From Deltaproteobacteria bacterium (GTDB lineage Bacteria > Myxococcota > Myxococcia > SLRQ01), in assembly GCA_029210625.1 (NCBI GenBank), contig JARGFU010000008.1, positions 138,661-202,660 of the forward strand: DNA of 64,000 nt. The letters are read 5' to 3'. Positions 1 to 48,365 of the stretch are shown here, piece after piece; position 1 is the first letter of the stretch; every line of letters starts with the position of its first letter. The position numbers and the translations under genes are program-made. A model generated the notes under the pieces. The model saw nothing but the letters and a program-made list of their open reading frames with translations. It was not told the origin of the DNA and ran no database searches.

Positions 1-3000
1 GGACATCCGGGTCTTCGCCCGGCCCGACATCCCGCTGGCCGAGCTCGGCACGCGGCTGCCGGCCTCCCTCGGCGGGGACGATCTGCAGAAGCAGCTCTTG
101 CCCCTGGGACAGGAGGCGGCGCTGGCCGCCGGCCTGGCCGCCCGGCACCCGACCGCCGGGGCGCTGGTGAGCGCGATCCGCGACGCGGTGGGGGGGCACC
201 TCCACCAGGCACGCTCCCTGGGCTCGCTCGCGCCGGGGGGGCCGCTGGCGCGGGCCCACGGCATCGAGGTGCCGGTGGCGCAGGGCCCGATGACCCGGGT
301 GAGCGACGTGGCGGCCTTCGCCGACGACGTCTCCGCCGCGGGCGCCCTGCCCTTCCTCGCCCTCGCCCTCCTGCCCCGCGAGCGCGCGATGGCCCTCCTC
401 CAGGAGACGGCGGAGCGGATGGGCGATCGCCCCTGGGGCGTCGGCATCCTCGGCTTCGTCGACGAGGCCATCCGCAAGGCCCACCTCGAGGCGATCCTCG
501 CCGCCCGCCCGACCGCCGCCCTGATCGGGGGGGGCCGCCCCGCCCAGGCCCGCCAGCTCGAGGCCGAGGGCATCGCCACCTACCTCCACGTCCCCTCGCC
601 GGGCCTCCTCGATCTCTTCCTGCGGGAGGGCGCCCGCCGCTTCATCTTCGAGGGACGGGAGTGCGGGGGCCACGTGGGGCCTCGCTCCTCCTTCACCCTC
701 TGGGAGCAGCAGCTCACGCGGCTGCTCGACTTCGACGCCCCGGAGGAGCTGCACATCTTCTTCGCCGGCGGCATCCACGACGCCCGCTCGGCCGCGATGG
801 TCGCCACCCTCGCCGCGCCCCTGGCGGCCCGGGGCGCGAAGATCGGCATCCTCATGGGTACCGCCTACCTCTTCACCGAGGAGGCGGTGCGGAGCGGCGC
901 CATCGTCCAGGGCTTCCAGGAAGCCGCCATCGAGTGCGAGGAGACCGTCCTCCTCGAGACCTCTCCCGGCCACGCCTCCCGCTGCATGGAGACCCACTAC
1001 GTCGACACCTTCCAGGAGGCGCGGGTGCAGCTGGAGGCCGAGAGCAAGACCCCGAAGGAGATCTGGGCGGCCCTCGAGTCGCTCAACCTCGGCCGGCTGC
1101 GCATCGCCTCCAAGGGCATCCGCCGGGAGGGCGACGCCCTCCTCGATGTCGAGCCCGAGACCCAGCGGCGCGAGGGCATGTACATGCTCGGCCAGGTGGC
1201 CGCGCTGCGGGCCGAGCCCACCACCCTGGCCGAGCTGCACCGCGAGGTGAGCGTCGGCACCCAGCGCTACCTCGAGGGCCTGCGGATCCCCGAGCGGAAG
1301 CGCCGGGCGATCCCGCCCGCCGACGTCGCCATCGTCGGCATGGCGTCCATCTTCCCGGGCGCACCCGACCTGCCCCGCTACTGGTCCAACGTCGTGCTGG
1401 GCGTCGACAGCGTGACCGAGGTCCCCGCCTCGCGCTGGAACCAGGAGCTCTATTACGACCCCGACTCCCAGGACGGGCAGAGGACGCCCTCGAAGTGGGG
1501 TGGCTTCCTCTCGCCCATCGACTTCGATCCACTGGCCTTCGGCATCCCCCCCAACAGCCTGGCCGCCATCGAGCCGGTGCAGCTCCTGGCCCTGGAGGTC
1601 GCCCGCCGGGCGCTGATCGACGCCGGCTACGGCGAGCGCGACTTCGATCGCGAGCGCACCTCGGTGATCTTCGGCGCCGAAGCCGGCACCGATCTCTCGG
1701 CGGCCTACGGCTTCCGCAACCTCTACCGTCAGTACCTCGGCGAGCTGCCCGAGGCCCTCGATCGCGCGCTGCCCTCCCTCACCGAGGACTCCTTCCCGGG
1801 GGTGCTGGCCAACGTCATCGCCGGCCGCATCGCCAACCGCCTGGATCTCGGGGGCGTGAACTACACGGTCGACGCCGCCTGCGCCTCCTCCCTGGCCGCC
1901 CTCGACCTCGCCTGCAAGGAGCTGACGGCGCACACCTCGGACTTCGTCCTCTGCGGCGGCGCGGATCTGCACAACGCCATCGGTGACTACCTGCTCTTCG
2001 CCTCCACCCACGCCCTCTCGCCGACCGGGCGCTGCCGCACCTTCGACGCGAAGGCGGACGGCATCGCCCTGGGTGAGGGCGTCGCGGTGGTGGCCCTCAA
2101 GCGCCTGGCCGACGCCGAGCGCGACGGCGACCGGATCTACGCCGTGGTCAAGAGCGTGGCGGGCTCCTCGGACGGCCGCTCGCTGGGGCTCACCGCGCCC
2201 CGCAAGGAGGGGCAGAAGCGCGCCCTCGATCGCGCCTACCACCGGGCCGGGCTCTCGCCGGCGCAGATCGGGCTCACCGAGGCCCACGGCACCGGCACGG
2301 TCGTCGGGGATCGCACCGAGCTGGGCACCCTCACCGAGACCTACTCCGCCGCCGGCGTCCTGCCGGGCACCATCACCCTGGGCTCGGTGAAGTCGAACAT
2401 CGGCCACACCAAGTGCGCGGCGGGCCTGGCCGGCCTGATCAAGGTCGCCCTCTCCCTCCACCACCGCACCCTGCCCCCCACCCTGCACATCGAGAAGCCC
2501 AACCCGGCCTGGGAGCCCGGCGCCAGCCCCTTCGTCTTCCGACGGGAGGCCGCGCCCTGGCCGGGCCGGGAGCACGCCGCCTCGGTCTCGGCCTTCGGCT
2601 TCGGCGGGACGAACTTCCACGCCATCCTCGCCGCCCACGAGGACCCCTCGGCGCCGCCTGCGCCGGGCCTGATCGAGTGGCCGGCCGAGCTCTTCCTCTT
2701 CCGGGATCCCGAGGACCTCGGGCGGCTGGCCGCCGTCCTCGAGCAGGGCGAGCCCTGGTGCCTGCGGGAGCTGGCCGCCGCGCTGAACGCGCGCGGCGAC
2801 GCCGGTGCGCCAGTGCAGCTGGCGATCGTCGCCTCCACCCCGAGCGAGCTGAAGGAGAAGCTGGTCGGCGCCCGCGCCGGGATGGCCGGCGACGGGATCT
2901 ACCCGGCCGAGGGCCACGAGCTCGCCGGCGGGAAGCTCGCCTTCCTCTTCCCCGGGCAGGGCTCCCAGCGCCCGGGGATGCTGGCCGAGCTCTTCGTCGC

Positions 3001-6000
3001 CTTCCCCTGGCTGCAGTCTCTCCTCGACCTCGACCTCGAGCTGGCCCGGACCATCTACCCTCCCGCGGCCTTCGACCCCGAGGCCGCCAAGCGGCAGCGC
3101 CGGGCCGTCACCGACACCCGGGTGGCGCAGCCCGCCCTCGGCCTGGTCGACCTCGCGGCCTTCCGCCTGCTCGGCTCCCTGCAGCTCGACCCCGCGATGG
3201 TGGCCGGACACAGCTACGGTGAGCTCGCCGCCCTCTGCGCCGCCGGCGCCCTCGAGCCCGAGGATCTGCTCGAGCTCTCGCGGGCCCGCGCCGAGGCCAT
3301 CCTCGAGGCCGCCGAGAGCTCCGAGGATCCCGGGACCATGGCGGCGGTGGGCGCCAGCGCCGACGTCGTCGCCGCCGCCCTCGCCGGCAACGACGAGGTC
3401 ACCCTCGCGAACTACAACGCCCCCAAGCAGACGGTGATCGCGGGCACCGAGGCCGCCATCGAGCGGGCGGTGGAGAAGCTCGGCGCCGACGGCCTGGCCG
3501 CCCGGCGGATCCCGGTGGCCTGCGCCTTCCACTCTCCCATCGTCGCCGGCGCCTCCGAGATCCTGGGCCGCTACCTGGAGACCGTCTCCCTGAAGACCCC
3601 CTCGCTGCCGGTCTACAGCAACACCGAGGCCGCCCCGCACGCCGATGATCCTGGCACCATCCGTCGGCTGCTCGCCGAGCACGTGGCCCGGCCGGTGCGC
3701 TTCCTCGACGAGATCGAGGCGATGTACGAGGACGGCGCGCGGGTCTTCGTCGAGGTCGGCCCCGGGCGGGTGCTCACCGACCTGACCGGCAAGATCCTCG
3801 GTGACCGCCCCCACCTGGCGGTGAGCCTGGAGCAGCCGGGACGCGACGGCCTCACCGGCCTGCTCCACACCCTGGGCCGCCTCGCCGCCGCCGGCGTCGC
3901 CTTCGATCCGGCGCCCCTCTTCGCCGGCCGGGAGGGCCGGCCCCTCGACCTCGAGTCGCCCGCCGCCCTCACCTCGCCGGCCGCCTGGAAGGTGGACGGT
4001 CACCGCGCCGTGCCGCGACGGGGCGAGCCGCCGGTCCACGGTCTGCAGGTGGTCGAGCAGCCCCTCGGCGTCGGACCGGGCGCCGGCCTGGGGCTGGGAG
4101 GCCCGACCGGTGAGCGCGGCGAGGTGATGGTGGAGTACCTGCGCGGGGTGCGGACCCTGGCCGCGGCCCAGCGCGACGTGCTCCTGACCTTCCTCGGCGG
4201 CACCCCGCCAGCAGCGGGCCCGGTGATCGAGACCACGGCCAGCCCGAGCGCCCCCGCCGAGCGCGCCGCCCTCGAGGCGGTGAGCGCCCCGGCGCCCTCC
4301 GGCGCCCCACCCGAGGAGAGGGATCCCGCCGAGGTGCTGATGCAGATCGTCAGCGAGCGCACCGGCTATCCCGAGTCGATGCTCGAGCTGGACCTCGACC
4401 TGGAGGCGGACCTCTCGATCGACTCGATCAAGCGGGTGGAGATCATCGGCCTGCTGGCCGAGCAGCTGGGCCTGGGCGGCGGCTCGGACGACGAGCGCGA
4501 CCGCCTGGTCGAGGAGCTCTCCCGGGTGAAGACCCTCCGCGGGATCCTCGAGTGGCTGGAGGAGCAGCTCCGCAAGGACGAGGAGGCCCCGGCCGCGTCC
4601 GAGGAGGAGGCGCCGGCGCCCGAGATCCCGGAGGCGACCCTGCGCTTCGTCTTCGAGGTCGCCGACGCCCCGCCCCTCGAGCGCCGCGGGAGCTCGCTGG
4701 CCGGCCAGACCTTCGTGCTCCACGGCGGCGACGACACCCTCCGGGGCGTCCTGCGCCGCCGGCTGGAGGGAGCGGGCGCGCACGTGCGCGTCGCCACCGA
4801 TCCGCTGCGCATCGACGCCGGCGATCGGCTGGTGCTCCTCGATCCGCTCTTGCGCGACGGTGAGGCGCGGCAGAGCCACCGCCTCTTCGCGCTGGCGGAC
4901 ATGGCCCGCAAGGCCCTGGGTGCCAGCGCCCGGGCCGTGATCGCGGCCACCACCCTCGGCCCCGGCTTCGGGCGGGAGAGCAGCGGCGACCTGCTGCCGG
5001 CCGCCGGCGTCGCCGGCCTCTTCAAGACCATCGCCCGGGAGTGGCCCGAGGCGCGGGTCCGCGCCGTGCACCTCGATCCCCGGGACGACGCCGAGACCAA
5101 GGCCGAGCATCTCCTCTCCGAGGCCATGGCCCAGGATGACATCGCCGAGGTCGGCTGGTTCGGCGGAAAGCGGCAGGTCCTCCGGGTGGTCGAGTCCCCC
5201 CGGCCGGGCAAGGGCGAGGCGAGCTTCTCCCTCCCCGAGGGCTCGGTCGTGCTCCTCACCGGCGGCGCCCGGGGCATCACCGCCCGGGTCGCCCTGGCCC
5301 TGGCGAGGAAGGGCGTGCGGCTGATCCTGGTGGGACGCAGCGCCGCCCCGGCCGCTCCGGAGAACGAGGCCCTGCGCGGCGCCACCACCGCCGTCGAGCT
5401 GCGCCGGAAGGTGGTCGAGCTGGAGCTCGCCTCCAGCCCGGCCGAGGTCGAGCGCATCTGCCGGACCCTCCTCGGTGAGCGGGCGCTGCGCGCGACCTTC
5501 GCCGCCCTGAAGACCACGGGGGCGAGCTTCGAGTACGAGACCTGCGACGTGCGCGATCGCTCGGCCTTCGGGCGCCTGATCGACTCCGTCTACGAGCGCC
5601 ACGGCCGCATCGACCTGGTGATCCACGGCGCCGGGGTGCTCGACGACCGGCTCCTGCGCGACAAGGACGCCGAGGGCTTCCAGCGGGTGGTCGACACCAA
5701 GGTCGAGGGGGCGCTCACCCTCGAGGCGCACCTCAAGCCCGACATCGGGCAGGTCGTCTTCTTCGGCAGCGTCAGCGGCGCCTTCGGCAACCGCGGGCAG
5801 GCCGACTACGCCGCCGCCAACGACGTCCTCGACAAGCTCGCCACCTCGATGAACCGCCGCCTCGAGGGGCGCGTGCTCTCCATCGACTGGGGCCCCTGGG
5901 GCGGAGGCGAGGGGATGATCGACGCGACCCTGGAGAAGGAGTACGCCCGCCGCGGCATCGGCCTCATCGCCCCCGAGGACGGCGTGCGCTGCCTCCTCGA

Positions 6001-6070
6001 GGAGCTCGCGCGCGAGGACGACGGCCCCCAGGTCCTCTACCTGCGCTCGGATCCCGAGCGCTTCGACTGA
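1..6070 (+). CDS. Iterative type I polyketide synthase, PUFA-synthase/heterocyst-glycolipid-synthase-like, domains ER(PfaD/FabK-type)-KS-AT-ACP-KR. The 5' end is truncated by the window edge.
   Basis: The frame is open from nt 2; the listed 98..6070 ORF begins at an internal TTG. An FMN-dependent ER motif (VAQGPMTRVSDVAAF) comes first. The KS has the active-site Cys (DAACASS) plus HGTGT and GHTKCAAG. The AT has GHSYGE. The ACP has LEADLSIDSIKRVEI. The KR has a Rossmann GGARGITA and a YAAAN motif. The stop is TGA at 6068-6070. Confidence 0.85.
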   Translation, partial: DIRVFARPDIPLAELGTRLPASLGGDDLQKQLLPLGQEAALAAGLAARHPTAGALVSAIRDAVGGHLHQARSLGSLAPGGPLARAHGIEVPVAQGPMTRVSDVAAFADDVSAAGALPFLALALLPRERAMALLQETAERMGDRPWGVGILGFVDEAIRKAHLEAILAARPTAALIGGGRPAQARQLEAEGIATYLHVPSPGLLDLFLREGARRFIFEGRECGGHVGPRSSFTLWEQQLTRLLDFDAPEELHIFFAGGIHDARSAAMVATLAAPLAARGAKIGILMGTAYLFTEEAVRSGAIVQGFQEAAIECEETVLLETSPGHASRCMETHYVDTFQEARVQLEAESKTPKEIWAALESLNLGRLRIASKGIRREGDALLDVEPETQRREGMYMLGQVAALRAEPTTLAELHREVSVGTQRYLEGLRIPERKRRAIPPADVAIVGMASIFPGAPDLPRYWSNVVLGVDSVTEVPASRWNQELYYDPDSQDGQRTPSKWGGFLSPIDFDPLAFGIPPNSLAAIEPVQLLALEVARRALIDAGYGERDFDRERTSVIFGAEAGTDLSAAYGFRNLYRQYLGELPEALDRALPSLTEDSFPGVLANVIAGRIANRLDLGGVNYTVDAACASSLAALDLACKELTAHTSDFVLCGGADLHNAIGDYLLFASTHALSPTGRCRTFDAKADGIALGEGVAVVALKRLADAERDGDRIYAVVKSVAGSSDGRSLGLTAPRKEGQKRALDRAYHRAGLSPAQIGLTEAHGTGTVVGDRTELGTLTETYSAAGVLPGTITLGSVKSNIGHTKCAAGLAGLIKVALSLHHRTLPPTLHIEKPNPAWEPGASPFVFRREAAPWPGREHAASVSAFGFGGTNFHAILAAHEDPSAPPAPGLIEWPAELFLFRDPEDLGRLAAVLEQGEPWCLRELAAALNARGDAGAPVQLAIVASTPSELKEKLVGARAGMAGDGIYPAEGHELAGGKLAFLFPGQGSQRPGMLAELFVAFPWLQSLLDLDLELARTIYPPAAFDPEAAKRQRRAVTDTRVAQPALGLVDLAAFRLLGSLQLDPAMVAGHSYGELAALCAAGALEPEDLLELSRARAEAILEAAESSEDPGTMAAVGASADVVAAALAGNDEVTLANYNAPKQTVIAGTEAAIERAVEKLGADGLAARRIPVACAFHSPIVAGASEILGRYLETVSLKTPSLPVYSNTEAAPHADDPGTIRRLLAEHVARPVRFLDEIEAMYEDGARVFVEVGPGRVLTDLTGKILGDRPHLAVSLEQPGRDGLTGLLHTLGRLAAAGVAFDPAPLFAGREGRPLDLESPAALTSPAAWKVDGHRAVPRRGEPPVHGLQVVEQPLGVGPGAGLGLGGPTGERGEVMVEYLRGVRTLAAAQRDVLLTFLGGTPPAAGPVIETTASPSAPAERAALEAVSAPAPSGAPPEERDPAEVLMQIVSERTGYPESMLELDLDLEADLSIDSIKRVEIIGLLAEQLGLGGGSDDERDRLVEELSRVKTLRGILEWLEEQLRKDEEAPAASEEEAPAPEIPEATLRFVFEVADAPPLERRGSSLAGQTFVLHGGDDTLRGVLRRRLEGAGAHVRVATDPLRIDAGDRLVLLDPLLRDGEARQSHRLFALADMARKALGASARAVIAATTLGPGFGRESSGDLLPAAGVAGLFKTIAREWPEARVRAVHLDPRDDAETKAEHLLSEAMAQDDIAEVGWFGGKRQVLRVVESPRPGKGEASFSLPEGSVVLLTGGARGITARVALALARKGVRLILVGRSAAPAAPENEALRGATTAVELRRKVVELELASSPAEVERICRTLLGERALRATFAALKTTGASFEYETCDVRDRSAFGRLIDSVYERHGRIDLVIHGAGVLDDRLLRDKDAEGFQRVVDTKVEGALTLEAHLKPDIGQVVFFGSVSGAFGNRGQADYAAANDVLDKLATSMNRRLEGRVLSIDWGPWGGGEGMIDATLEKEYARRGIGLIAPEDGVRCLLEELAREDDGPQVLYLRSDPERFD

Positions 6071-6077
6071 TCTCGCC

Positions 6078-9000
6078 ATGGCGAACTCGCGCGGCATCGC
6101 CATCGTCGGACTGGGCGCACGCTTCCCGGGCGCCGAGGACGTCGAGCAGTTCTGGCGCAACATCGCCGCCGGTCACGACGCGATCGGGCCGGTCCCGGAG
6201 GAGCGGATCCCGGGCGTCTTCTTCGACGCGAGCACCAGCAGCATCGACCGGCTCCCCTGCCGCCGCGGCGGCTTCCTCGGGGCGAGCATCAACCTCGACG
6301 TCGCCGCCCACGGCCTGATGCCGGTGGCGGCCCGGGGGGCCGAGCCCGATCAGCTCCTGGCCCTCGACCTCGCGACCGCGACCTTCGCCGACGCGGGCTA
6401 CACCGAGGGCGGCTTCGATCGGAGCCGCACCGCGGTGATCCTGGGCCGGGGGGGCTACCTGGGACCGGGGCTGGTGCGGGCCGATCAGAGCGTGCGGGGC
6501 GCCGAGCAGCTCGCCGGCCTGCTGCGGCGGCTGCTCCCGGACCTGCCCCTGTCGCGGATCGAGGCCATCAAGGACGCCTACCAGGAGGCGGCGGGCCCCT
6601 ACGGTCCGGACACCGCCATCGGCCTGGTGCCGAACCTCGCCGCCTCCCGGATCGCCAACCGCCTCGATCTGCGCGGGCCAGCCTTCACCCTCGACGCCGC
6701 CTGCGCCAGCAGCCTCCTCGCGGTCGAGCAGGCGATGCTCCTCCTCGAGACCCGCCGGGCGGATCACGTCCTGGCCGGGGGCATCCACCTGGTGCAGGAC
6801 CCGACCTTCTGGAGCGTCTTCGCGCAGCTCGGCGCCCTCTCCCGCAGCGAGGCGATCCGCCCCTTCGACGCTCGCGCCGACGGCCTGCTCATCGGCGAGG
6901 GCGCGGGCTTCTTCCTCCTCGAGCGCCTCGAGGACGCCGAGGCCGCCGGTCACCGCATCTACGCGGTGATCCGCGGCGTGGGCTCGGCGAGCGACGGCCG
7001 GGGCACCTCGGTGATGCAGCCGAGGGCCGAGGGGCAGCGCCTGGCCCTGGAGCGGGCCTGGGAGGGATCGGGCCTCGAGCCCGCCCACATCGGGCTGGTC
7101 GAGGGGCACGGCACGGGCACCACCGCCGGGGACGGAGTGGAGCTCGAAACCCTGGCCCGCTTCTTCGGCCCGGCCGGGGAGGGCCCGCGCGCCAGCCTCG
7201 GCTCGGTGAAGTCGATGATCGGTCACACCATGCCGGCGGCGGGCGCCGCGGGGCTGATCAAGGCGGCCCTGGCGATCTTCCACCGCAGCCTGCCGCCCTC
7301 CCTCCACTGCGAGGAGCCCCACCCGAAGCTGGCGGCCACCCGCTTCGAGGTGCACGTCGCGGCCCGGCCCTGGACGACCGGCCCGGGAGAGGAGCGCGTC
7401 GCCGCGGTGAACGCCTTCGGCTTCGGTGGCATCGACGCCCACGTGGTGCTCTCCGAGGCCCCGGCGGGCAGCCGCCGGACCCACCGGGTGCAGGCCCTCG
7501 ACCGGGTCGAGCCCTCCTTCCCCGGCCTCCCCGACGAGGAGCGGACGGGGCTGCCCGAGGTGCTGCGCCTCGCTGGCGACTCGCCCGCCGCGCTCCTCGC
7601 GGCCCTCGAGCGCGGCGAGGGGCCGATCGGCACCGGCCCCTGCCGGCTGGCCGTCCTCCAGCCCACCCCCGAGCGCCTCGCCCGGGCGCGCCGGGTCGTC
7701 GAGCGCGGTGAGCCCTGGCGGGGCCGCGGCGGGATCTGGTTCGCCCCCGAGGGCCTGGCCCTGCAAGGCGGCAAGGTGGCCTTCCTCTTCCCGGGGGTGG
7801 ACGCCGACTTCCGCCCGCGGGTGCGCGAGCTCGCCGAGCACTTCGACCTCTCGCTGCCGCCGGAGCTCGAGGCCCTCGAGGCCGAGGAGGCGCCCCGCCG
7901 CCCCGAGGCCATCGACCGCACCGGGATGGGGATCTACCGGGTCAACCAGCTCTGCTTCGAGCTGCTCTCCCGGATCGGCCTCTTCGCCGACGCGATGGCC
8001 GGGCACAGCATCGGCGAGTGGAGCGCGATGATCCACGGCGGCCTCCTGCCGCAGGGCGCGGTGGAGGCCTTCCTGGAGGAGAGCGGCGGGCAGGCCCTCG
8101 AGGTGCCCGGCGTGCTCTTCGCCGCCGCCGCCTGCTCGGTGGACGACGCCCTCGACGCGATGACCGATCTGGAGGCCATCGGCCTCTCCCACGACAACTG
8201 CCCCCACCAGGTGATCCTCTGCGGGAAGGAGGAGAGCATCGAGACCGCCCGGGCCCGGCTGCTCTCCCGCGGCGCGGTCGTGCAGATCCTCCCCTTCCGC
8301 TCGGGCTTCCACTCCCGCCTCTTCGACGACTACCTCGACCCCCACCGCGCGCACTTCGAGCGGCTGCCCATCGAGGCGGCGCACACCACCGTCTGGTCGG
8401 CGACCACCTGCAGCCCCTTCCCGGTGGGCGCCGACGCCGTGCGCGAGCTCGCCCTGCGCCACCTCGTCGAGCCGGTGCGCTTCCGGGAGCTCATCGAGGC
8501 CCTCTACGATCACGGCCACTCGATCTTCGTGCAGGTGGGCACCGGCAGCCTGCCGGGCTTCGTCTCCGACACCCTCGGCGCGCGCCCCCACCTGACGGTC
8601 AGCGTCAGCGATCCGAAGCGCGGCGGCCTCGAGTCCCTCGCCCGCCTCGGCGCGGCCCTCTTCGTGGAGGGCATCGACCTCTGGGCCGGGATCGACCGCG
8701 CCAGGCGGCCCGGCCGGGAGGCGGCCTCCGGCGGCGGGGTGGAGACCGGGTCGAGGGGCCTGGAGCTCCCCCTGGGTGCGCCCTTCATCTCGGTGGGCGA
8801 GCCCCTGCCCTTCGGCAGCGCCGGCCCTCGCCTGCCCCCGCCCGCCCGCGGCGCGCTGCGGGATCCCCTGCGGGACGAGGTCGAGGCGACCCTCGAGGAC
8901 CTCTCCCGGATGCAGGCGGAGATCCTCGAGACCTACCAGCAGGCGCTGCGGGGGCGGAGCCGGCCCGTGCGGCAGCAGCGCACCCTCTCGGTGCGCACCG

Positions 9001-10439
9001 TGCCCGAGCTGATCGATCACAGCTTCTACCCGCAGGGCGAGGGGGCGACCCTGGCCGAGCGCGATCCCGTCGTGCCGATGACGATGTCGATCGAGCTCCT
9101 CCTGGAGCTCGCCCGCAAGGCCTTCCCCGGCCGCACCCCCGTCGCCCTCGAGGAGCTGCGGATGCACCAGTGGCTGCGGGTGCACCCGGCGGCGAAGGTG
9201 CAGCTCGTCGCCGAGCCCCGGGGAGACGATCGGGCCCACGTCGCCATCGAGGGCTTCTGCGAGGGCACCGTCCGCCTCGCCGACGCCTACCCCGCGCCGC
9301 CGGCCAGCCAGCTCCCCCCTCTCGCCGACGCCGGCCCGCCGCCCATCGACGCGGCCACCCTCTACGCCGACCGCTGGATGTTCCACGGGCCGGCCTACCA
9401 GGGCGTGCACACCATCGGCGCGCTCGGCGCCGGCGGCGTGGAGGGCAAGCTCAAGGTCACCGAGGGGCCCGGCGCCCTCCTCGACTCCCTCGGTCAGCTC
9501 TTCGGCTTCTGGCTGATGGCGACCCGCACCGAGGACAAGCTGGCCATGCCGATCGGCCTGGAGTCCCTCGAGCGCTTCGGCCCGCACCCGCAGGCTGGCG
9601 AGCTCCTCGACGCGCGGGTGCGGATCACTCACTGCGACGATCGCCGCCTGGTGGGGGACATGGAGGTCCTGCGCGGCGAGCAGGTCTGGTGCCGGATCCG
9701 CGGCTGGGCCGACCACCGCTTCCCCTCGGATCCGGACACCTGGAAGGTGCTGCAGCACCCCGAGCGCCACCGCCTCTCGGCGCGCCGGGAGCCCTACTTC
9801 CTCTTCGACGCCGCGCGCTGCCGGCCGCCCTCCCGGGACTGGCTGATCCGGCGGATGCTCTCGGAGCACGAGCGCACCACCCTCCTGGCCTCGGCGCCCC
9901 AGGCGCAGCGCGCCTACCTCCACGCGCGCATCGCCGGGAAGGACGCCGTGCGGAGCCTGCTGGAGCAGGGCGCCGAGCTCGCCGATCCTGGCGAGGCCAT
10001 CTTCCCCTCCACGCTCCCGCTCCTGGGCGATCACGAGGAGGGCCTGCGCCTGGCCGGCCCCCACGCTGGCGAGCTGAAGGTGGACGCCGCCACCGCCGGA
10101 GATCTCGCGGTGGCCCTCGCCTCCCGCAAGGGCGAGGTGGCCATCGCGCTCTACCCCCTGGGCAGCCTGCCGCCCGGCGCCCGCCAGGCGAGCTTCGCCA
10201 GCGACGAGCTGGATGCCGCGCGCGCAGCGGGCGCCGGTGACGACCTCGACGCCCGGCTCCACGTCTGCGCTGCCCGGGCCATCGCCTCCCGCCTGGCCGC
10301 GCGCGGCGGGGAGGCCGGGCCCCGCGAGGCGGACGCCGTGAGCGAGGGCCGGCCGGGCGGCCTGCGCGTCGGAGAGCTCTGGGTCGAGCTGCGGGTGGAC
10401 CTGGGCCACCTGGTGGCCTGGGCCCTGCGACCGGACTAG
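6078..10439 (+). CDS. Second PKS subunit: KS-AT-DH(hot-dog) plus a C-terminal ~230 aa tail with weak phosphopantetheinyl-transferase-like motifs.
   Basis: ATG at 6078 lies 8 nt after the upstream stop. The KS has DAACASS, EGHGTGT and GHTMPAAG. The AT has GHSIGEW. The hot-dog DH region has HQWLRVHP and LYADRWMFHGPAYQG. The tail contains LSEHERTTL and RIAGKDAVRSLLEQG, which resemble AcpS/Sfp motifs. Confidence 0.8.
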   Translation: MANSRGIAIVGLGARFPGAEDVEQFWRNIAAGHDAIGPVPEERIPGVFFDASTSSIDRLPCRRGGFLGASINLDVAAHGLMPVAARGAEPDQLLALDLATATFADAGYTEGGFDRSRTAVILGRGGYLGPGLVRADQSVRGAEQLAGLLRRLLPDLPLSRIEAIKDAYQEAAGPYGPDTAIGLVPNLAASRIANRLDLRGPAFTLDAACASSLLAVEQAMLLLETRRADHVLAGGIHLVQDPTFWSVFAQLGALSRSEAIRPFDARADGLLIGEGAGFFLLERLEDAEAAGHRIYAVIRGVGSASDGRGTSVMQPRAEGQRLALERAWEGSGLEPAHIGLVEGHGTGTTAGDGVELETLARFFGPAGEGPRASLGSVKSMIGHTMPAAGAAGLIKAALAIFHRSLPPSLHCEEPHPKLAATRFEVHVAARPWTTGPGEERVAAVNAFGFGGIDAHVVLSEAPAGSRRTHRVQALDRVEPSFPGLPDEERTGLPEVLRLAGDSPAALLAALERGEGPIGTGPCRLAVLQPTPERLARARRVVERGEPWRGRGGIWFAPEGLALQGGKVAFLFPGVDADFRPRVRELAEHFDLSLPPELEALEAEEAPRRPEAIDRTGMGIYRVNQLCFELLSRIGLFADAMAGHSIGEWSAMIHGGLLPQGAVEAFLEESGGQALEVPGVLFAAAACSVDDALDAMTDLEAIGLSHDNCPHQVILCGKEESIETARARLLSRGAVVQILPFRSGFHSRLFDDYLDPHRAHFERLPIEAAHTTVWSATTCSPFPVGADAVRELALRHLVEPVRFRELIEALYDHGHSIFVQVGTGSLPGFVSDTLGARPHLTVSVSDPKRGGLESLARLGAALFVEGIDLWAGIDRARRPGREAASGGGVETGSRGLELPLGAPFISVGEPLPFGSAGPRLPPPARGALRDPLRDEVEATLEDLSRMQAEILETYQQALRGRSRPVRQQRTLSVRTVPELIDHSFYPQGEGATLAERDPVVPMTMSIELLLELARKAFPGRTPVALEELRMHQWLRVHPAAKVQLVAEPRGDDRAHVAIEGFCEGTVRLADAYPAPPASQLPPLADAGPPPIDAATLYADRWMFHGPAYQGVHTIGALGAGGVEGKLKVTEGPGALLDSLGQLFGFWLMATRTEDKLAMPIGLESLERFGPHPQAGELLDARVRITHCDDRRLVGDMEVLRGEQVWCRIRGWADHRFPSDPDTWKVLQHPERHRLSARREPYFLFDAARCRPPSRDWLIRRMLSEHERTTLLASAPQAQRAYLHARIAGKDAVRSLLEQGAELADPGEAIFPSTLPLLGDHEEGLRLAGPHAGELKVDAATAGDLAVALASRKGEVAIALYPLGSLPPGARQASFASDELDAARAAGAGDDLDARLHVCAARAIASRLAARGGEAGPREADAVSEGRPGGLRVGELWVELRVDLGHLVAWALRPD

Positions 10440-10945
10440 GGGGCGTCCAGCACCTCGACGGGCGGCGGGGAGAGCGGCGCCTCGATCGGCGGCGGCGCGG
10501 CCTCGGCCGGCGGAACGAACTCTGCTGGAGGCACCAACGCTGCCGGCGGCGCGGCCATCGGCGGCGGAGGCGACCGATCCTTCCAGGCCCAGGAGGTCTT
10601 CATCGCCCGGCAGAAGGCGGCGTCCTTCAGCCCGCGCTGACCCGACTGCCAGTGGACGATCGTGGCGAGCGCCGCCGTCACCGGGAAGGCGATCAGCAAG
10701 CCGGTCCGGCGCTCCTGGCAGGTGTCGGAGAGGCGGGGCGTGTTGGCCGCCAGCAAGGCGCCGCCGATCCCCACCGCCGGCCAGAAGAGGCCGGCCATCG
10801 CGTGGTCCCCGACCGGGGCGAGGTAGCTCTCGTTGCAGACCGGCGGCTCCTGCTGCTCCCGGGCCTTCTCTCCCACGTAGGGGACCGCGATCAGGGAGCA
10901 GCCCGCGCAGGAGAGCAGCGCGCTGACGAGCAGCAGGCGCATCAT
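10436..10945 (-). CDS. Lipoprotein with a Pro/Ala-rich C-terminus (hypothetical).
   Basis: Start ATGATG reads MMRLLLVSALLSCAGCS, a signal peptide with a lipobox. Its start overlaps the upstream gene's stop as ATGA. The C-terminus is a low-complexity PPAEFVPPAEAAPPP run. The stop is convergent with the PKS2 stop. Confidence 0.6.
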   Translation of the reverse strand: MMRLLLVSALLSCAGCSLIAVPYVGEKAREQQEPPVCNESYLAPVGDHAMAGLFWPAVGIGGALLAANTPRLSDTCQERRTGLLIAFPVTAALATIVHWQSGQRGLKDAAFCRAMKTSWAWKDRSPPPPMAAPPAALVPPAEFVPPAEAAPPPIEAPLSPPPVEVLDAP

Positions 10946-11316
10946 GGATCGCACCGCTGCACGCAGAGGGTCAGGGCCTGGCCGCAATAGGGGCGCGCCT
11001 TGAGGTCGGGTCCGTTACCGCACCCGCCACCGGAGCATCCGGATCCCCCCCCGCCGGCGACGAGCGCGACGACCGCGAGGACCACCCCGGCCGCCGCCGC
11101 CGCGGCCGCCGTCACGATCCAGGGCGCCATCAGGAGGGTCGAGCTCGAGCGGGCGCTCTCGCAGTCGTCGTAGTCGTTCCGGCAGGCCTGGGTGCAGGGC
11201 GAGCGGTCCAGGTCCGTCGGCATGACGTAGGCCGGCGTGCAGCTCGTGACGAGCAGGACGAGCACGAGCAGCGACGAGGAGAGCGCCGCCCACCCTCTCC
11301 TCGCCTCGAGACGCAT
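10942..11316 (-). CDS. Small Cys-rich lipoprotein (hypothetical).
   Basis: ATG at 11316 reads MRLEARRGWAALSSSLLVLVLLVTSCTP (lipobox). The mature part has about 10 Cys and a GGGSGCSGGGCG motif. Only 2 nt separate it from the fbaA stop, and it overlaps the next lipoprotein start as ATGA. Confidence 0.55.
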   Translation of the reverse strand: MRLEARRGWAALSSSLLVLVLLVTSCTPAYVMPTDLDRSPCTQACRNDYDDCESARSSSTLLMAPWIVTAAAAAAAGVVLAVVALVAGGGGSGCSGGGCGNGPDLKARPYCGQALTLCVQRCDP

Positions 11317-18255: not shown

Positions 18256-18308
18256 GGTTCACGGTTTCGCGGCCACCGGGCGCCGGGGGGCTGCTATGCT
18301 CCTGCGCG

Positions 18309-18593
18309 ATGAGCACCGAGGCCAGCAAGCCGGAGATCCTCGCCGCCGTTCGCGGCTGCATCGTGGAGGTGGTCGGCGAGGCCTGGGCCTCGGAGGTGAC
18401 CATCGGCCCCGAGACCTCCTTCTCCGAGGATCTCGAGCTCGAGAGCATCGAGCTGGTCGCCCTCTCGGAGAAGCTCGCCGAGGCCTTCGGCGAGGGCATC
18501 GACTTCGTGGGCTGGCTCTCGGGGATGGAGCTCGACGCGATCCTGGAGCTGTCGGTGGGCGACGTGGTGGAGCACATCGAGTCGTGCCGCTGA
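18309..18593 (+). CDS. Acyl carrier protein (discrete).
   Basis: The 94 aa product has the DLELESIELVALSEKLAEAFG motif with a Ser in the DSL-like position. It lies 54 nt after the kinase. Its stop overlaps the next gene's GTG start. Confidence 0.7.
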   Translation: MSTEASKPEILAAVRGCIVEVVGEAWASEVTIGPETSFSEDLELESIELVALSEKLAEAFGEGIDFVGWLSGMELDAILELSVGDVVEHIESCR

Positions 18594-19369
18594 TCGACGC
18601 CGGCGGCCTCGAGCTCCACGTCCAGACCCTCGGGCCCGGCCCCGAAGCCCCCCGGCCCCCACCGCCGCCGGTGATCTTCCTCCACGGCCTGCTCGTGGGC
18701 TCGATGGCCACCTGGTACTTCTCCCTGGCCCCGGCCCTGGCGGCGCAGCGCAAGGTGGTGCTCTACGACCTGCGGGGCCACGGGCGCAGCGCGACCCCGG
18801 CGCGGGGCTACGCCCTCCACGATCACCTGGTGGACCTCGGCGCGGTGCTCGGCGCCTGTGAGGTGAAGAGCGGACCGGTGGTGCTGGTCGGCCACAGCTT
18901 CGGCGCCCTCGTCGCCCTCATGGCGACCCTGCGGCGGCCCGAGCGCGTGGCGAAGCTCGTGCTCTGCGAGCTGCCCCTGCCCCCGGCCTCGGCCGGCGTG
19001 ATCCCCGATCCCGCGCAGATCGACGTCGAGGGGCTCTTCGCCTCCCTGCCGCCGGCCGTGCAGGCGGCCGTCGCCGAGGGGGGTCGGCGCGGCCGGCGCT
19101 TCGTGGAGCGGGTGCGCACGCTGGTCGAGGAGACCTCCCTGCTCGCCGACCTCTTCGCCATGACCGACGTCGACGACACGGACCTCGGCGGCCTGATGAC
19201 CCCCACCCTGGCCCTCTACGGCCGGGACTCCCTCTGCCTGCCGACCGGCGAGCGCCTCGCCCGGGTGATGCCGGCCGCGCGGCTCGTCACCCTGCCCGGC
19301 GGGCACTTCCTGCCGGTGGAGTCGCCCGACGCGGTGGGCGAGGCGGTGAAGGAGTTCCTCGGTGGCTGA
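18584..19369 (+). CDS. Alpha/beta-hydrolase fold protein.
   Basis: GTG at 18584 overlaps the ACP stop. The nucleophile elbow is VGHSFGAL. HGLLVGS fits an oxyanion region. It is a paralog of the next gene, sharing an N-terminal GGLELHVQTLG / GGLKLHVQSLG segment. Confidence 0.8.
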   Translation: MPLIDAGGLELHVQTLGPGPEAPRPPPPPVIFLHGLLVGSMATWYFSLAPALAAQRKVVLYDLRGHGRSATPARGYALHDHLVDLGAVLGACEVKSGPVVLVGHSFGALVALMATLRRPERVAKLVLCELPLPPASAGVIPDPAQIDVEGLFASLPPAVQAAVAEGGRRGRRFVERVRTLVEETSLLADLFAMTDVDDTDLGGLMTPTLALYGRDSLCLPTGERLARVMPAARLVTLPGGHFLPVESPDAVGEAVKEFLGG

Positions 19370-20156
19370 AGTCCTCGTCGGTGGCCTGAAGCTCCACGTC
19401 CAGAGCCTGGGGCAGAGCCCGGGGGAGGACCGGGCCGAGCGAGCCCCGGCCCTCTTCCTCCACGGCCTGGTGATGGACAACCTCTCCTCCTGGTTCTTCA
19501 CCGTCGCCGGCAAGGCCGCCGCCGAGCGCCGGGTCGTGCTCCACGACCTGCGCGGCCACGGGCGGAGCGAGCGGCCGGCGAGCGGCTACACCCTGCCGGA
19601 GCTGACCGGCGAGATCGTCGGGGTCCTCGACGCCCTCGGCGTCGAGCAGCCGGTGCAGGTGGTGGGCAACTCCTTCGGCGGCCTGCTGGCGATCTGCCTC
19701 GCCCTCGAGCACCCGGAGCGGGTAGCCAGCCTGGCGCTGGTCGACGCCCTGCTCCCCGAGCCCGGCTGGGCCGGGAACATGCGCGCCACCCTCTCGCTGG
19801 AGGGCGACGCGGCCGACAGCCGCATCGCCTCGGACTTCAAGAGCTGGCTCGGCCGCCACAGCGCCCGCAAGCGCAACCGCCTGGCCGACGCCGCCCGGAC
19901 GCTGGTGAAGGAGACCAGCCTCCTCGACGACCTGGAGACCTCGCCGACCCACGAGGACGCGGCCTACGAGCGCATCACCGCGCCGGTCCTCGCCCTCTAC
20001 GGCGGCGCCTCCGATCAGCGCGCGGCCGGCGAGCGCCTCTGCGCCCGCCTGCCCGACGCTCGCCTGGAGATCGTCCCCGGCGCGACCCACTCGATCCTCT
20101 GGGAGGCCACCGACCTCCTCACCGAGCGCCTGCTGGCCTGGCTGGCCCTGCGCTAA
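19362..20156 (+). CDS. Alpha/beta-hydrolase fold protein, tandem paralog.
   Basis: GTG start overlaps the preceding stop by 8 nt. GNSFGG is the nucleophile motif. A His is present near the C-terminus (GATHSILWE). Confidence 0.8.
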   Translation: MAEVLVGGLKLHVQSLGQSPGEDRAERAPALFLHGLVMDNLSSWFFTVAGKAAAERRVVLHDLRGHGRSERPASGYTLPELTGEIVGVLDALGVEQPVQVVGNSFGGLLAICLALEHPERVASLALVDALLPEPGWAGNMRATLSLEGDAADSRIASDFKSWLGRHSARKRNRLADAARTLVKETSLLDDLETSPTHEDAAYERITAPVLALYGGASDQRAAGERLCARLPDARLEIVPGATHSILWEATDLLTERLLAWLALR

Positions 20157-25958: not shown

Positions 25959-26939
25959 CTACTGCAGGTGGATCGCGGCGCCCTCGGAGCGCCCGGCCCA
26001 GAGCACGGCCTGGGAGCCGCCGGCCAGGAGGTTGGTGACGCTGGCCGAGCGGGTCACCCCGAGGAAGGCGTTGCCGTTCTGGGCGCCGCCGTCCCGCACC
26101 GGGGCGAGGTACTGCGCCGGCACCTCGAAGCTGCCGGTGTCGTTGGTCACGCAGACCAGCATCGTCCCGGAGATCGCCGAGAGGTAGAAGAGGTCGGCCG
26201 GGGTCAGGGTGATCACGACGAGGTCGCCGCCGCCCGGCGTCCAGGTGATGGTCATCGGGGAGGAGGCCGGCTGCTGAGCCACCGTCGCGCCGGGGGTCGG
26301 CGAGATCAGCGCCATCTCCTGCGGGGTCGTCAGGTTGATCGAGAAGGCGCCGAGGTCCGGGCCGCCCATCGCGTTGGCGGTGATCACGTTGCCCTCGTTG
26401 AAGAGGGGCCGCGGCACGGAGCCGGCCGGCTGGTACTCCACGCCGCCGCTCACGGCGACGGGGTTCAGCGTCACCGCGCTGCCCGCGAGGCCGCCGACGA
26501 CGATCTGGCCGGCGTCGAAGCCGGGCAGGGTGGTCGGCGCGTTCGGATCGTAGGCCTCGTTGCTGCAGCCGGCGGGCGGGGGAGGATCGAAGACGTCGGT
26601 GACCACCGCCTCGACGGTCGAGAGGGGCACCTGCGGGATGTCGGTGAGGGTGATGATCGCCCGCATCGGGGTCCCGGTGCCGCCGTCGTCACCCCCGTCG
26701 GGGAGGCTCCCGTCGGGGATCCCGCCGTCGTCGCCGCCGTCGGGGTTTCCGCCTGCGTCGGAACTGCCGCCGTCCTCGCCGCCGTCGGGCCAGCCCCCGC
26801 CATCGTCGCCGCCGTCGACGCCCGCGTCCCGTCCTCCGTCCCGGTTCGGCGTGTCGAAGTCCGGCTCGTTGCGGCCGCCGCAGGCGGCCAGGAGAAGCAC
26901 GAGGGAAGCGGCGAGGGAGCAGGTGACGAGGTGCCTCAT
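25959..26939 (-). CDS. Lipoprotein with an Asp/Gly-rich DGG-repeat linker (hypothetical, Myxococcales-type).
   Basis: MRHLVTCSLAASLVLLLAACGG has a lipobox. The repeat region is DGGRDAGVDGGDDGGGWPDGGEDGG... A non-repetitive C-terminal domain follows. Confidence 0.65.
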   Translation of the reverse strand: MRHLVTCSLAASLVLLLAACGGRNEPDFDTPNRDGGRDAGVDGGDDGGGWPDGGEDGGSSDAGGNPDGGDDGGIPDGSLPDGGDDGGTGTPMRAIITLTDIPQVPLSTVEAVVTDVFDPPPPAGCSNEAYDPNAPTTLPGFDAGQIVVGGLAGSAVTLNPVAVSGGVEYQPAGSVPRPLFNEGNVITANAMGGPDLGAFSINLTTPQEMALISPTPGATVAQQPASSPMTITWTPGGGDLVVITLTPADLFYLSAISGTMLVCVTNDTGSFEVPAQYLAPVRDGGAQNGNAFLGVTRSASVTNLLAGGSQAVLWAGRSEGAAIHLQ

Positions 26940-27003
26940 GATCCTCCGGAGGATACCCGAATCGGGCCGACTTTGGGTGGGGGGCGGGTTAGAGTGTTCG
27001 CCC

Positions 27004-28203
27004 GTGGCGAATCTCGGCTACATCCAGGTGGTGAGGCACTGCAACCACGTCTGTGGCTTCTGCAGCAACCCGGTCACGCCCTACGTCCACACCTTCGACT
27101 CGATGAAGGTGCTGGTCGACGACTTCGTCGAGCGGGGCTACTACGGCGTCATCCTCACCGGCGGCGAGCCGACCCTCCACCCCGAGCTGCCGGCCATCTG
27201 CCGCTACGCCCGCGACCAGGGCCTGCACGTGCGGATGATCACCAACGGCTCGCGCCTCTCCGAGGAGGGCTTCGCCCGGGACATGGCCGAGGCCGGCCTG
27301 CAGCTGGCGCACATCTCGGTCTACTCGGTGCGCCCGGAGATCGAGGCGCAGCTGCGCGGCACCGAGGACACCCTCCCGGCGGCGCTGAGGTCGATCGAGA
27401 ACGCCCACAAGTTCGGCATCGACGTGAACCTCAACTGCGTCATCAACAAGCTCAACGCCGACCACCTCGACGAGAACATCCGCTACTTCATCGAGCACCA
27501 CCCCTACGTCCGGCACTTCGTCTGGAACAACCTCGACCCCTCCATGGGCCGGGCCGAGGCGAACCAGGCCCACTACCTCCACCGCCTGGTCGACTTCGAG
27601 GTCTCCCTCACCCGGGCCTGCTCCCTCCTGCAGAAGTCCGGCCGCACCTTCCGGGTGGAGAAGGTCCCCTTGTGCTTCATGACCGACTTCGCCTGGGCGA
27701 GCACCGAGACGCGGAAGATCGTGAAGGGCGAGGAGCGCATCGTGCACTTCCTCGACGCCAAGCAGACGGTGCGGCAGACCGAGTGGGGCCACCTCTACGC
27801 CGACGCCTGCGAGCCCTGCTCGCTCAAGACCATCTGCGCCGGCCTCTTCGACCGGGGCGAGGGCTACGATCCGGCCGAGTTGAACCCGGTCTTCGTCGAC
27901 CGCGACGCCATCGCCCGCCGGATCCTCTTCGACGGCCAGGATCCGGCCTTCGAGTTCCCGACCTTCGAGGCCTGGCGGATCGACTTCGACCGCCGCCTGA
28001 AGGCGCAGCGGGAGGAGGCCGAGGCGCGCGGCCCCCGCGATCGGGACCGCCCGCCGCAGGATCACAGCCTGAAGGTGGGCGAGGTCACCGAGAAGGGCCG
28101 CCGCCTCTTCGAGTCCAAGCGCGCCTCCGAGGAGCGCAAGGCCGCCGAGCGCGGCCTCTCCCTCGAGGGGCGCGAGGAGAGCGACGGCCCGGCCGAGGGC
28201 TGA
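27004..28203 (+). CDS. Radical SAM protein with a C-terminal SPASM/twitch-like Cys motif and a charged disordered tail.
   Basis: CNHVCGFC matches CxxxCxxC. The Gly-rich SAM motif is VILTGGEP. The C-terminal Cys cluster is CEPCSLKTIC. The start is uncertain among GTG 27004, GTG 26977 and ATG 26938. The ATG at 26938 would overlap the divergent lipoprotein start. Confidence 0.75.
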   Translation: MANLGYIQVVRHCNHVCGFCSNPVTPYVHTFDSMKVLVDDFVERGYYGVILTGGEPTLHPELPAICRYARDQGLHVRMITNGSRLSEEGFARDMAEAGLQLAHISVYSVRPEIEAQLRGTEDTLPAALRSIENAHKFGIDVNLNCVINKLNADHLDENIRYFIEHHPYVRHFVWNNLDPSMGRAEANQAHYLHRLVDFEVSLTRACSLLQKSGRTFRVEKVPLCFMTDFAWASTETRKIVKGEERIVHFLDAKQTVRQTEWGHLYADACEPCSLKTICAGLFDRGEGYDPAELNPVFVDRDAIARRILFDGQDPAFEFPTFEAWRIDFDRRLKAQREEAEARGPRDRDRPPQDHSLKVGEVTEKGRRLFESKRASEERKAAERGLSLEGREESDGPAEG

Positions 28204-33513: not shown

Positions 33514-34749
33514 CTACCGCGCCTTCGCCAGGGCGTGGACCTCGTCGTCGGTGAGGACGTGGTCCGCGGCCTTGGCGCCGGCGAAGACGGCCTGGGCCAG
33601 CTCGTCGCTGACCTCGTAGCCGTTCTTGTCGAGCCAGTAGAGGACGTTCGAGAGGCCGCTCATCGGGCCCACCTCGATGCGCTGGGACTCCCCCACCATC
33701 GAGGCGGGGACGCCCGAGTAGACTCGATCGGCGAGGAAGTCCTCGCCCTTCTTCTCGGCCTTGATCACCGCGGCGGCGTGCACGCCGGTGGCGGTCCGGA
33801 AGGCGTCGGTGCCGACGACGGGGTAGCCCTTGGGGATGGGCGTGTCGGTGGCCTCCGAGATCAGCTTCACCCACTCGGGGAGGTTGGTCAGGTCGCCGTC
33901 GAACTCACCGAGGAGCTTGAGGTTCACCAGGAGCTGATCGAGGGAGGCGTTGCCGACGCGCTCGCCGATGCCCAGCGCCGTGCCGTGGAGGCGGGTGGCG
34001 CCGTACTCCATGGCGGTGAGGGTGTTGGTCAGCGCCAGGCCCCGATCGTTGTGACCGTGCCAGTCGATGCCCACCTCGCGCCCCGAGGACTCGATGATGT
34101 CCTTGGTGAACTCGATGAGGTTCTTCACGCCGTCGGGGGTGGCGTGGCCGACGGTGTCGCAGAGGGTGAGGCGGTGGATGCCGCACTCGATGGCGTTGCG
34201 GAAGAGCACCGAGAGGTCCTGGGGCGTCGAGCGCACGGTGTCCTCGGTGACGAAGGTCACCGGCAGGCCCTCGCCCACCGCGAACTCGATGGCGGTCGAG
34301 CTGAACTTCAGCAGCTTCTCGACCTCCCACTCCTCGACGAAGCGCCGGATGGGGCTGGTGCCGAGGAAGGCCATCACCTCGAGCTGCATCCCGACCTTCT
34401 GGCTGATCTCGGCGATCGGGCGCACATCATTCAGGTGGGTCCGCGCCGCGCAGTTCGCCTTGATGGGCAGCTTCTTCTCGATGATGAACTCGGCCAGCTC
34501 CGTGACGTGCTCGACCGCCCGCGGACCCGCGCCGGGCAGGCCGAGGTTGATCGAGTGGATACCGAGGGCCGCGGAGAGCTCGATGAAGCGCTTCTTCTCC
34601 TCGATGGTCGGATCCTTGACCGAGGGGCCCTGGATACCGTCTCGCAGGGTCTCGTCCTGCAGCATCACCGACCCCTCGGTGAGGGGGTGGCGGCGCTTGC
34701 GAGTGTTCCAGTCGTAGACGAGCTTCTGCTCGTGCTGGTTGGACGACAT
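33514..34749 (-). CDS. DRE-TIM metallolyase of the 2-isopropylmalate synthase/homocitrate synthase family (no LeuA regulatory domain).
   Basis: LQDETLRDGIQ matches DxTLRDGxQ. HGHND is a metal-binding motif. The product is 411 aa. Confidence 0.8.
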   Translation of the reverse strand: MSSNQHEQKLVYDWNTRKRRHPLTEGSVMLQDETLRDGIQGPSVKDPTIEEKKRFIELSAALGIHSINLGLPGAGPRAVEHVTELAEFIIEKKLPIKANCAARTHLNDVRPIAEISQKVGMQLEVMAFLGTSPIRRFVEEWEVEKLLKFSSTAIEFAVGEGLPVTFVTEDTVRSTPQDLSVLFRNAIECGIHRLTLCDTVGHATPDGVKNLIEFTKDIIESSGREVGIDWHGHNDRGLALTNTLTAMEYGATRLHGTALGIGERVGNASLDQLLVNLKLLGEFDGDLTNLPEWVKLISEATDTPIPKGYPVVGTDAFRTATGVHAAAVIKAEKKGEDFLADRVYSGVPASMVGESQRIEVGPMSGLSNVLYWLDKNGYEVSDELAQAVFAGAKAADHVLTDDEVHALAKAR

Positions 34750-34874
34750 GAGGTGCTCCCTTCATCCCGATTTGCGTCAGAGCGGCCGTGGTGTACCACT
34801 GTCCACCCGAGAATGCGTAGATCGACCCGCAACGGGCCCCGGCCCGGACAGTGATTTCCATACCTTAGGAAGCG

Positions 34875-45499: not shown

Positions 45500-45508
45500 A
45501 GGTACACC

Positions 45509-48344: not shown

Positions 48345-48365
48345 CTCTCTCGAAAGGAGAGCACG

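Follow-up and report, generated by a model that had tools for sequence, protein, structure and literature searches.

Does a polyketide synthase (PKS)-like gene pair from a Deltaproteobacteria bacterium encode its own activating enzyme? The pair lies at the left edge of a 64,000-nucleotide stretch of contig JARGFU010000008.1 (assembly GCA_029210625.1, positions 138,661 to 202,660), which we refer to as the window. The second gene, open reading frame 2 (ORF2; 6078..10439, + strand), encodes a 1453-aa protein with the same sequence as NCBI MDF1563272.1, which comes from a 238-kb contig of a Deltaproteobacteria metagenome-assembled genome (MAG). Its tail (residues 1215-1453, which with the stop codon occupy 9720-10439, exactly the interval named in the original prediction) follows a PKS-type dehydratase (DH) domain and had been proposed to be an integrated 4'-phosphopantetheinyl transferase (PPTase) that makes the synthase self-activating. 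Here, we find that the PPTase-like fold and the descent from a cis-acting PPTase are well supported by a family profile, Foldseek, and PF01648 matches in homologs, but that catalytic competence is not, as the signature residues are substituted. In the explanation that we consider probable on these sequence grounds, the tail is a pseudo-PPTase that no longer binds Mg2+ or coenzyme A (CoA) productively and is kept via an N-terminal half built into the DH region, with the former catalytic half drifting.

A PPTase-like domain behind the dehydratase

The tail is not low-complexity sequence, as had been noted: its 239 residues are non-repetitive with a compact predicted fold, and they are rich in Ala, Leu, and Arg, as expected at a GC content of 72%. 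All three peptides on which the PPTase assignment had been based are present in it:

LSEHERTTL, residues 1261-1269, positions 9858-9884
RIAGKDAVRSLLEQG, residues 1284-1298, positions 9927-9971
GDLAVALAS, residues 1341-1349, positions 10098-10124

Searches with the window sequence itself did not identify the domain. PF01648 (ACPS), a proposed check, is absent from the tail in a Pfam search even at E <= 1, with nothing significant past residue 1214; neither TIGR00556 nor any other NCBIfam model matches the tail, and a word-indexed protein search with the tail alone returned 0 matches at E <= 1e-3. Two weak Pfam matches, AAA_25 (E 0.02-0.1) and RHH_1 (E 0.18), are below cut-offs and fold-incompatible, and we treat them as noise. 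Matches of the tail alone to PDB sequences were at chance level (e.g., the NiFe hydrogenase small subunit, E 0.16) and were rejected as well.

Homologs surfaced only when the DH was included. A query of residues 960-1453 recovered 12 homologs with 30-42% identity. In 10 of these, PF01648 follows the DH at 31-53 bits (cut-off 25), in some of them with PF17837 too. A family profile of 236 positions, built from the tails of nine homologs, aligned to the window tail over positions 1-232 with 74-79 bits (E ~3e-24), a resemblance far above chance. The tail thus matches the family of DH-linked cis-PPTases over its full length and holds the same position, directly after a PKS-type DH. This alignment also delimits the parts of the tail:

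9720..10127, + strand: linker and N-terminal pseudo-half of the PPTase-like domain, residues 1215-1350
10128..10436, + strand: C-terminal (normally catalytic) pseudo-half of the PPTase-like domain, degenerate, residues 1351-1453
10437..10439, + strand: ORF2 stop codon

Structure prediction, the second proposed check, agrees with the profile. The AlphaFold2 model of the tail is a compact alpha/beta domain (mean predicted local distance difference test score, pLDDT, 89.4; predicted template modeling score, pTM, 0.88), and its top 31 Foldseek matches in the PDB are all Sfp-type PPTases (AASDHPPT, Sfp, PptAb, PptT, and PcpS), with AcpS enzymes next. The predicted fold is the two-lobed, pseudo-dimeric alpha/beta fold of PPTases of ~220-240 aa. 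A model of DH plus tail (pLDDT 90.2, pTM 0.87) is consistent with a rigid, fixed DH-PPT didomain. Altogether, profile and model indicate a PPTase-fold domain descended from an integrated (cis) Sfp-type PPTase; PF01648 is absent but the fold is not an unrelated one, so the idea of a PPTase-like domain survives.

Catalytic residues and the two halves of the domain

An Sfp-type PPTase is a pseudo-dimer in which an AcpS-like unit occurs twice within one chain; its N-terminal pseudo-half has no metal site. The Mg2+ ion that activates the pyrophosphate of CoA is held, in Sfp and AcpS, by three acidic residues, and replacing one of them is enough to abolish activity; mutagenesis of Sfp has established this for D107 and for E151. 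We aligned the Sfp sequence, after confirming the numbering of H90, D107, E109, E151, and K155, with the family profile and read the window residues at the signature positions:

Sfp H90, profile position 126: T1339 in the window
Sfp D107, profile position 143: A1357
Sfp E109, profile position 145: Y1359
Sfp W147, profile position 180: H1395
Sfp K150, profile position 183: R1400
Sfp E151, profile position 184: A1401
Sfp K155, profile position 188: R1405

Among 63 relatives with intact tails, those seven positions are 98-100% conserved. In the window, the GIDxE motif has become A1355-I-A1357-L-Y1359 (10140-10154), with A1355 in place of its Gly, and the W..KE...K motif has become H1395..R1400-A1401...R1405 (10260-10292). 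The Mg2+-binding acidic triad (Sfp D107, E109, and E151) is therefore missing, replaced by A1357, Y1359, and A1401. The window also lacks the CoA-binding motifs P1a, x(G/D)xP, and P1b/P1b', FNxSH or hShxH with Sfp H90: profile columns P106, S123, and H126, all 100% conserved in intact relatives, correspond to L1323, D1336, and T1339. Because all of the Mg2+ ligands and the CoA contacts are replaced, residual transferase activity is very unlikely, and the proposal of self-activation is not supported, given these and the other substitutions at signature positions in the catalytic half. Neither of the remaining forward frames shows a PPTase motif between 9900 and 10800, and so a frameshift does not conceal an intact domain; GC content at third codon positions (GC3) is 0.94-0.95 throughout the tail.

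The motifs that had suggested a PPTase lie in the other half. The N-terminal half of the family aligned best to residues 22-115 of Bacillus subtilis AcpS (profile against PDB, E 4e-12) and is closer to AcpS than to Sfp, as would follow from the internal duplication of Sfp-type enzymes. The aligned family consensus, RRYL..ER..Y....WL.GRIAAKDAVR, covers the AcpS FLAGRFAAKEAFSKAFG helix, and the C-terminal half of the family matched Sfp residues 65-164. LSEHER and RIAGKDAVRSLLEQG are thus, on this alignment, genuine AcpS-like motifs, but of the N-terminal pseudo-half; the original prediction had likened LSEHER and RIAGKDAVR to elements of AcpS/Sfp PPTases, and the real (F/W)xxKE(A/S)xxK belongs to the C-terminal half. 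We also considered an alternative active site in the N-terminal half, where the conserved K-D matches the K-E of AcpS, but the acidic residues of the first strand are not conserved in the family, and this candidate was rejected.

The two halves have fared differently in the window. We counted a column as conserved if at least 85% of intact tails agree on it; the window retains 19 of 27 such columns in the N-terminal half but only 5 of 17 in the C-terminal half. Well conserved in the former are RRML-SEHER (R1258, R1259, E1265, and R1266) and R1284..K1288-D1289..R1292, and its CoA-contact motifs are lost (GxP at E1321/L1323 and hShxH at D1336/T1339); in the latter, the terminal beta-strands (LRVGELWVELRV..HLVAWAL) are retained. 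The N-terminal motif RR.L...ER....R.A.KDAVR (9849-9953, residues 1258-1292) hardly varies, whether a tail is intact or dead.

Degeneration among relatives and competing explanations

Relatives of the DH plus tail are encoded at no fewer than 596 loci in a scan that took one genome for each species, and the best 80 of these loci were fetched. These 80 come from Myxococcota, Actinomycetota (including Streptomyces, Amycolatopsis, and Pseudonocardiaceae), Acidimicrobiales, and Sulfidibacter; every signature residue is kept in about 60 of the fused tails and not in about 20. The KS-AT-DH-tail architecture of ORF2 recurs in L003, L064, and L068, and L003, which has the same architecture as the window, likewise has no ACPS match in its tail.

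In a neighbor-joining tree of the DH and N-terminal half, the window falls within a clade (L002, L003, L004, L006, L007, and L032) in which all sampled members are degenerate or truncated and whose sister is the intact L001. Degenerate tails also stand separately in the tree at L016/L019, L069, L066/L045, the Sulfidibacter paralogs L011/L021, and an Acidimicrobiales clade, a distribution that indicates independent degeneration in at least five lineages besides that of the window. The dead state is old, being common to clade members that are just ~45-55% identical in the DH. Full-length dead tails still keep the terminal beta-strands, and substitution of Asp by Ala at the first metal ligand recurs among them (AIALY, GIALV, AIALV, GVAIA, GIAVE, and GLAIL); degeneration of this type is seen in L002, L003, L069, L016, L011, and L021. 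The last two are paralogous loci on the Sulfidibacter corallicola chromosome, and both of their tails are degenerate, with GLAIL and GLAVA for GIDxE.

A second sample consisted of the 153 nearest representatives of 50%-identity clusters. The D/E/E triad is kept in 90 of these, 15 complete tails lack at least one ligand, and in the remainder the C-terminal half is partial or missing, in some owing to fragmentary contigs. The K-D pair of the N-terminal half is kept in 144 of the 153. At a DH identity of ~0.44-0.45, pairs of intact tails share 0.47 identity in the N-terminal and 0.42 in the C-terminal half, and degenerate pairs share 0.41 and 0.31. On these matched comparisons, the degenerate C-terminal half appears relaxed yet not random, and the N-terminal half near normal.

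Six loci from Acidimicrobiia (L031, L054, L059, L064, L067, and L077; Acidimicrobiales/Microthrixaceae) have a separate PPTase-like ORF, a member of the same family, upstream of the gene that bears the tail; in L064, this stand-alone ORF (ACPS, 62 bits) lies between the two PKS genes. All signature residues are present in five of the six stand-alone ORFs, the L077 copy being a 137-aa fragment, and the fused tails of these loci are cut back to approximately the N-terminal half. This looks like a relocation of the catalytic function to a separate gene.

We propose that the tail is a degenerate, catalytically dead Sfp-type PPTase domain fused to the DH of subunit two in a Pfa-like (Type M-like) iterative lipid/polyketide synthase made up of two proteins, with the organization ER-KS-AT-ACP-KR plus KS-AT-DH-PPT*. 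The tail would have lost phosphopantetheine transfer and would be retained chiefly to support the DH structurally, with constraint still acting on the N-terminal half while the C-terminal half erodes. A dead tail together with an intact acceptor serine on the acyl carrier protein (ACP) would mean that activation in trans is needed; the ORF1 ACP is probably activated in this way, with Ser1443 modified by a PPTase that would be encoded outside the 64-kb window.

The most direct alternative is that the tail is an active cis-PPTase and the synthase phosphopantetheinylates itself. The enediyne PKSE enzymes SgcE and CalE8 provide a precedent, in that the cis-PPTase after the DH modifies the ACP of its own protein (PMC3107222, citing Zhang et al. 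2008). The PPTase fold predicted for the tail fits this alternative, and intact relatives with the same position and architecture are very probably self-activating. Moreover, no other PPTase is visible in the window, either in a six-frame search with the family profile, by Pfam on the ~30 ORFs between 10.4 and 56 kb, or in phmmer searches that used Sfp and two AcpS sequences as queries. However, the Mg2+ ligands are now A, Y, and A, the K-E of the catalytic helix is R-A, the conserved Trp is His, the GxP and S/H contacts to CoA are replaced, and no match to PF01648, TIGR00556, or any other PPTase model remains; given that a single substitution at D107 or E151 abolishes Sfp activity, we regard an active domain as improbable. 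Still harder to sustain is the idea that an assembly or sequencing error, such as a frameshift or chimera, has corrupted a normal PPTase domain. The source is a MAG, and MAGs carry indel errors, but the profile alignment runs continuously in one frame over 232 positions and includes the last beta-strands, translation in either of the other frames yields Arg/Pro/Ala junk that lacks GIDxE and KE motifs, GC3 holds at 0.94-0.95 along the tail, and equivalent substitutions recur in many independent assemblies. An artifact of this kind can be set aside with near certainty.

A different possibility is that the tail is a neofunctionalized pseudoenzyme, i.e., a selected module that binds a ligand or partner, for example by docking the ORF1 ACP to the DH or by associating the subunits. 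This overlaps with the structural role that we propose. R1258/R1259, E1265/R1266, R1284, K1288-D1289, and R1292 hardly change between members, be they intact or dead, the N-terminal half survives deletion of the C-terminal half or the presence of a separate PPTase gene, the dead state is old, and the pTM of the DH-plus-tail model is 0.87. On the other hand, the tail no longer has the residues through which Sfp-type enzymes contact CoA, and we saw no new conserved motif in the C-terminal half specific to the dead clade. We consider such a new function unlikely, although less so than retained activity.

Several points weigh against our preferred explanation, a pseudo-PPTase held by its N-terminal half. 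Inactivity of the tail is read from residue substitutions only. The neighbor-joining tree is rough, based on BLOSUM distances and with no support values. L007, L006, and L032 apparently lack the whole C-terminal half, which fits plain decay as well as it fits the proposed structural role. The AlphaFold2 alignments are dominated by intact homologs, and the confidence in the C-terminal half may reflect the family and not the window sequence; the pTM is indirect evidence for an interface between DH and tail. Finally, the trans-acting PPTase was not found in the window, where ORFs below ~100 aa and those to the right of ~56 kb were covered by six-frame searches only.

A bolder reading, which we hold to be less likely than not, gives the PPTase domains of this synthase family a further function besides catalysis. 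It would be seated in the N-terminal half and could be a stable association with the DH, whether structural or for ACP docking. Such a function would explain the repeated independent loss of catalysis (in six or more lineages and in about a quarter to 40% of near relatives), the constant retention of the N-terminal half with its invariant R..ER..R.A.KDAVR motif, and the move of the catalytic function to a separate gene in Acidimicrobiales. If so, the window tail would be a bona fide megasynthase pseudoenzyme domain and not simply decay.

The synthase, its neighbors, and known systems

What is visible of the system is a gene pair at the window's left edge. Their features, with domains assigned by Pfam, are as follows:

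98..6070, + strand: ORF1, PfaD-PfaA-like fusion, ER (NMO)-KS-AT-ACP-KR
ORF1 domains, + strand: NMO, residues 52-329; KS, 409-799; AT, 949-1228; PP-binding, 1413-1459; KR, 1717-1935
6078..9719, + strand: catalytic part of ORF2, KS, AT, and PKS-type double-hotdog DH
ORF2 domains, + strand: KS, residues 5-412; AT, 610-821; PKS_DH_N/PS-DH, 995-1210
10436-11014, - strand: convergent ORF directly after ORF2, with no Pfam match

Cys-His-His is present in each KS domain, as is GHSxG in each AT domain; in ORF2, these are the Cys of DAACAS, HGTGT, and GHT in the KS and GHSIG in the AT. The single ACP is in ORF1, with the PUFA/PKSE-style motif LSIDSIKRVEI and its phosphopantetheine acceptor, Ser1443 (4424-4426), intact. 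The best NCBIfam model for ORF1 is PfaA TIGR02813, at 923.7 bits, below its cut-off of 1010.1. The ORF1 frame is open back to base 2, and the NMO domain lies at residues 342-596 of the L003 open frame (stop to stop), compared with 52-329 in ORF1; the true start may therefore precede the first base of the window, and any genes farther upstream, potentially a PPTase among them, lie outside it. An antisense ORF of 1481 aa (5964-10409, - strand) shadows ORF2 and is an expected artifact of 72% GC, not a gene; GC3 is ~0.95 in genes of the window.

Since a minus-strand ORF converges on the end of ORF2, no further PKS gene follows downstream, where the genes are convergent and seemingly unrelated (a hypothetical protein, FBP aldolase, an S49 peptidase, histidine kinases, two alpha/beta hydrolases, and others). 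The tandem alpha/beta hydrolases (18296-19366 and 19350-20153, + strand), ~8 kb downstream of the synthase, have weak PF00975 thioesterase matches and could be chain-release enzymes or unrelated. An operon-like run at 41060-49202 (+ strand) encodes an AMP-binding acyl ligase, an NAD-dependent epimerase/reductase, a B12-binding radical SAM protein, an acyl-CoA dehydrogenase, a DAO-type FAD oxidoreductase, and a 2-oxoacid-dehydrogenase-type acyltransferase, and may be a second lipid or acyl-modifying cluster. A radical SAM protein (26554-28200, + strand), an HMGL-like protein (33517-34761, - strand), and a xanthine-dehydrogenase-type 2Fe-2S/molybdopterin pair (34869-37786, + strand) represent ordinary metabolism unlinked to the synthase.

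The closest described systems are the Type M secondary lipid synthases of Shulse & Allen 2011, e.g., from Renibacterium salmoninarum, Frankia, and S. avermitilis (PMC3098273). A fused pfaDA together with a pfaBC that carries a PPTase domain occurs in Aquimarina and Flavobacterium clusters and in the uncharacterized synthase of R. salmoninarum (PMC13291983). The Pfam domains of ORF1 and ORF2 give a Type M-like architecture, and we assign membership from the architecture described in these two papers: there are two large genes, an ER is fused ahead of a PfaA-like KS-AT-ACP-KR, the product is uncharacterized, and a second KS-containing subunit ends in DH plus PPTase domain, with P1b'-type hShxH in relatives. 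The difference is that the PPTase domain of the window has no catalytic or CoA-binding signature residue; degenerate PPTase domains are not mentioned in PMC3098273 or PMC13291983.

PKSE enzymes such as SgcE and CalE8 (KS-AT-ACP-KR-DH-PPTase) are similar in being iterative, PfaA-related type I synthases with a C-terminal PPTase directly after a PKS-type DH. However, they are single polypeptides with one KS-AT and no ER, whereas the window system is split over two proteins, has a second KS-AT and an ER, and carries a domain that is predicted to be inactive. No enediyne accessory genes (the cassette of E3, E4, E5, and the E10 thioesterase) were seen in the window, with the region upstream of ORF1 lying outside it; the system is thus neither the single polypeptide nor the enediyne cassette expected of a PKSE.

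Stand-alone Sfp-type enzymes (group II: Sfp, PptT, PcpS, AASDHPPT, and PfaE) share only 9-19% identity with the tail, and the tail differs from them in its covalent fusion to the DH and in lacking the Mg2+ ligands and the (V/I)G(I/V)D...(F/W)xxKE(A/S)xxK signature. The C-terminal PPT of the fungal type I fatty acid synthase alpha-subunit (PDB 2WAS) is AcpS-like, one-lobed, oligomeric, and catalytically active, unlike the tail. System-encoded PPTases are also known from a Pseudoalteromonas pfaC fusion (PMC3098273) and from Rhodococcus erythropolis RerA/RerB (Type Q), where the PPTase domain is in the partner RerB and its inactivation abolishes the product (PMC11563203). RerA/RerB is likewise a PfaA/PKSE-like iterative synthase, one that brings its own activating PPTase. 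In RerB, however, the active PPTase is part of a PPTase-Y-TE protein and does not follow a DH, while the cis domain of the window appears dead, with no replacement seen nearby.

A cis-PPTase after a DH is already known from PKSE and Type M-like Pfa systems, and the locus is not a new kind of system. In the limited collection of literature that we searched, we found no description of inactive or degenerate cis-PPTase domains and no report of recurrent catalytic loss with retention of the N-terminal half. A label of "integrated PPTase" based on fold or homology would wrongly predict a self-sufficient cluster, and heterologous expression of such orphan Pfa-like clusters would probably need an external Sfp-type PPTase. 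Across a widespread, uncharacterized synthase family of at least 596 loci, the cis-PPTase domains appear to have been repeatedly inactivated with half of the domain retained. This pattern of retention suggests an extra structural role for the PPTase fold beside the DH, which, if true, would bear on how PKSE-like DH-PPT didomains are constructed.

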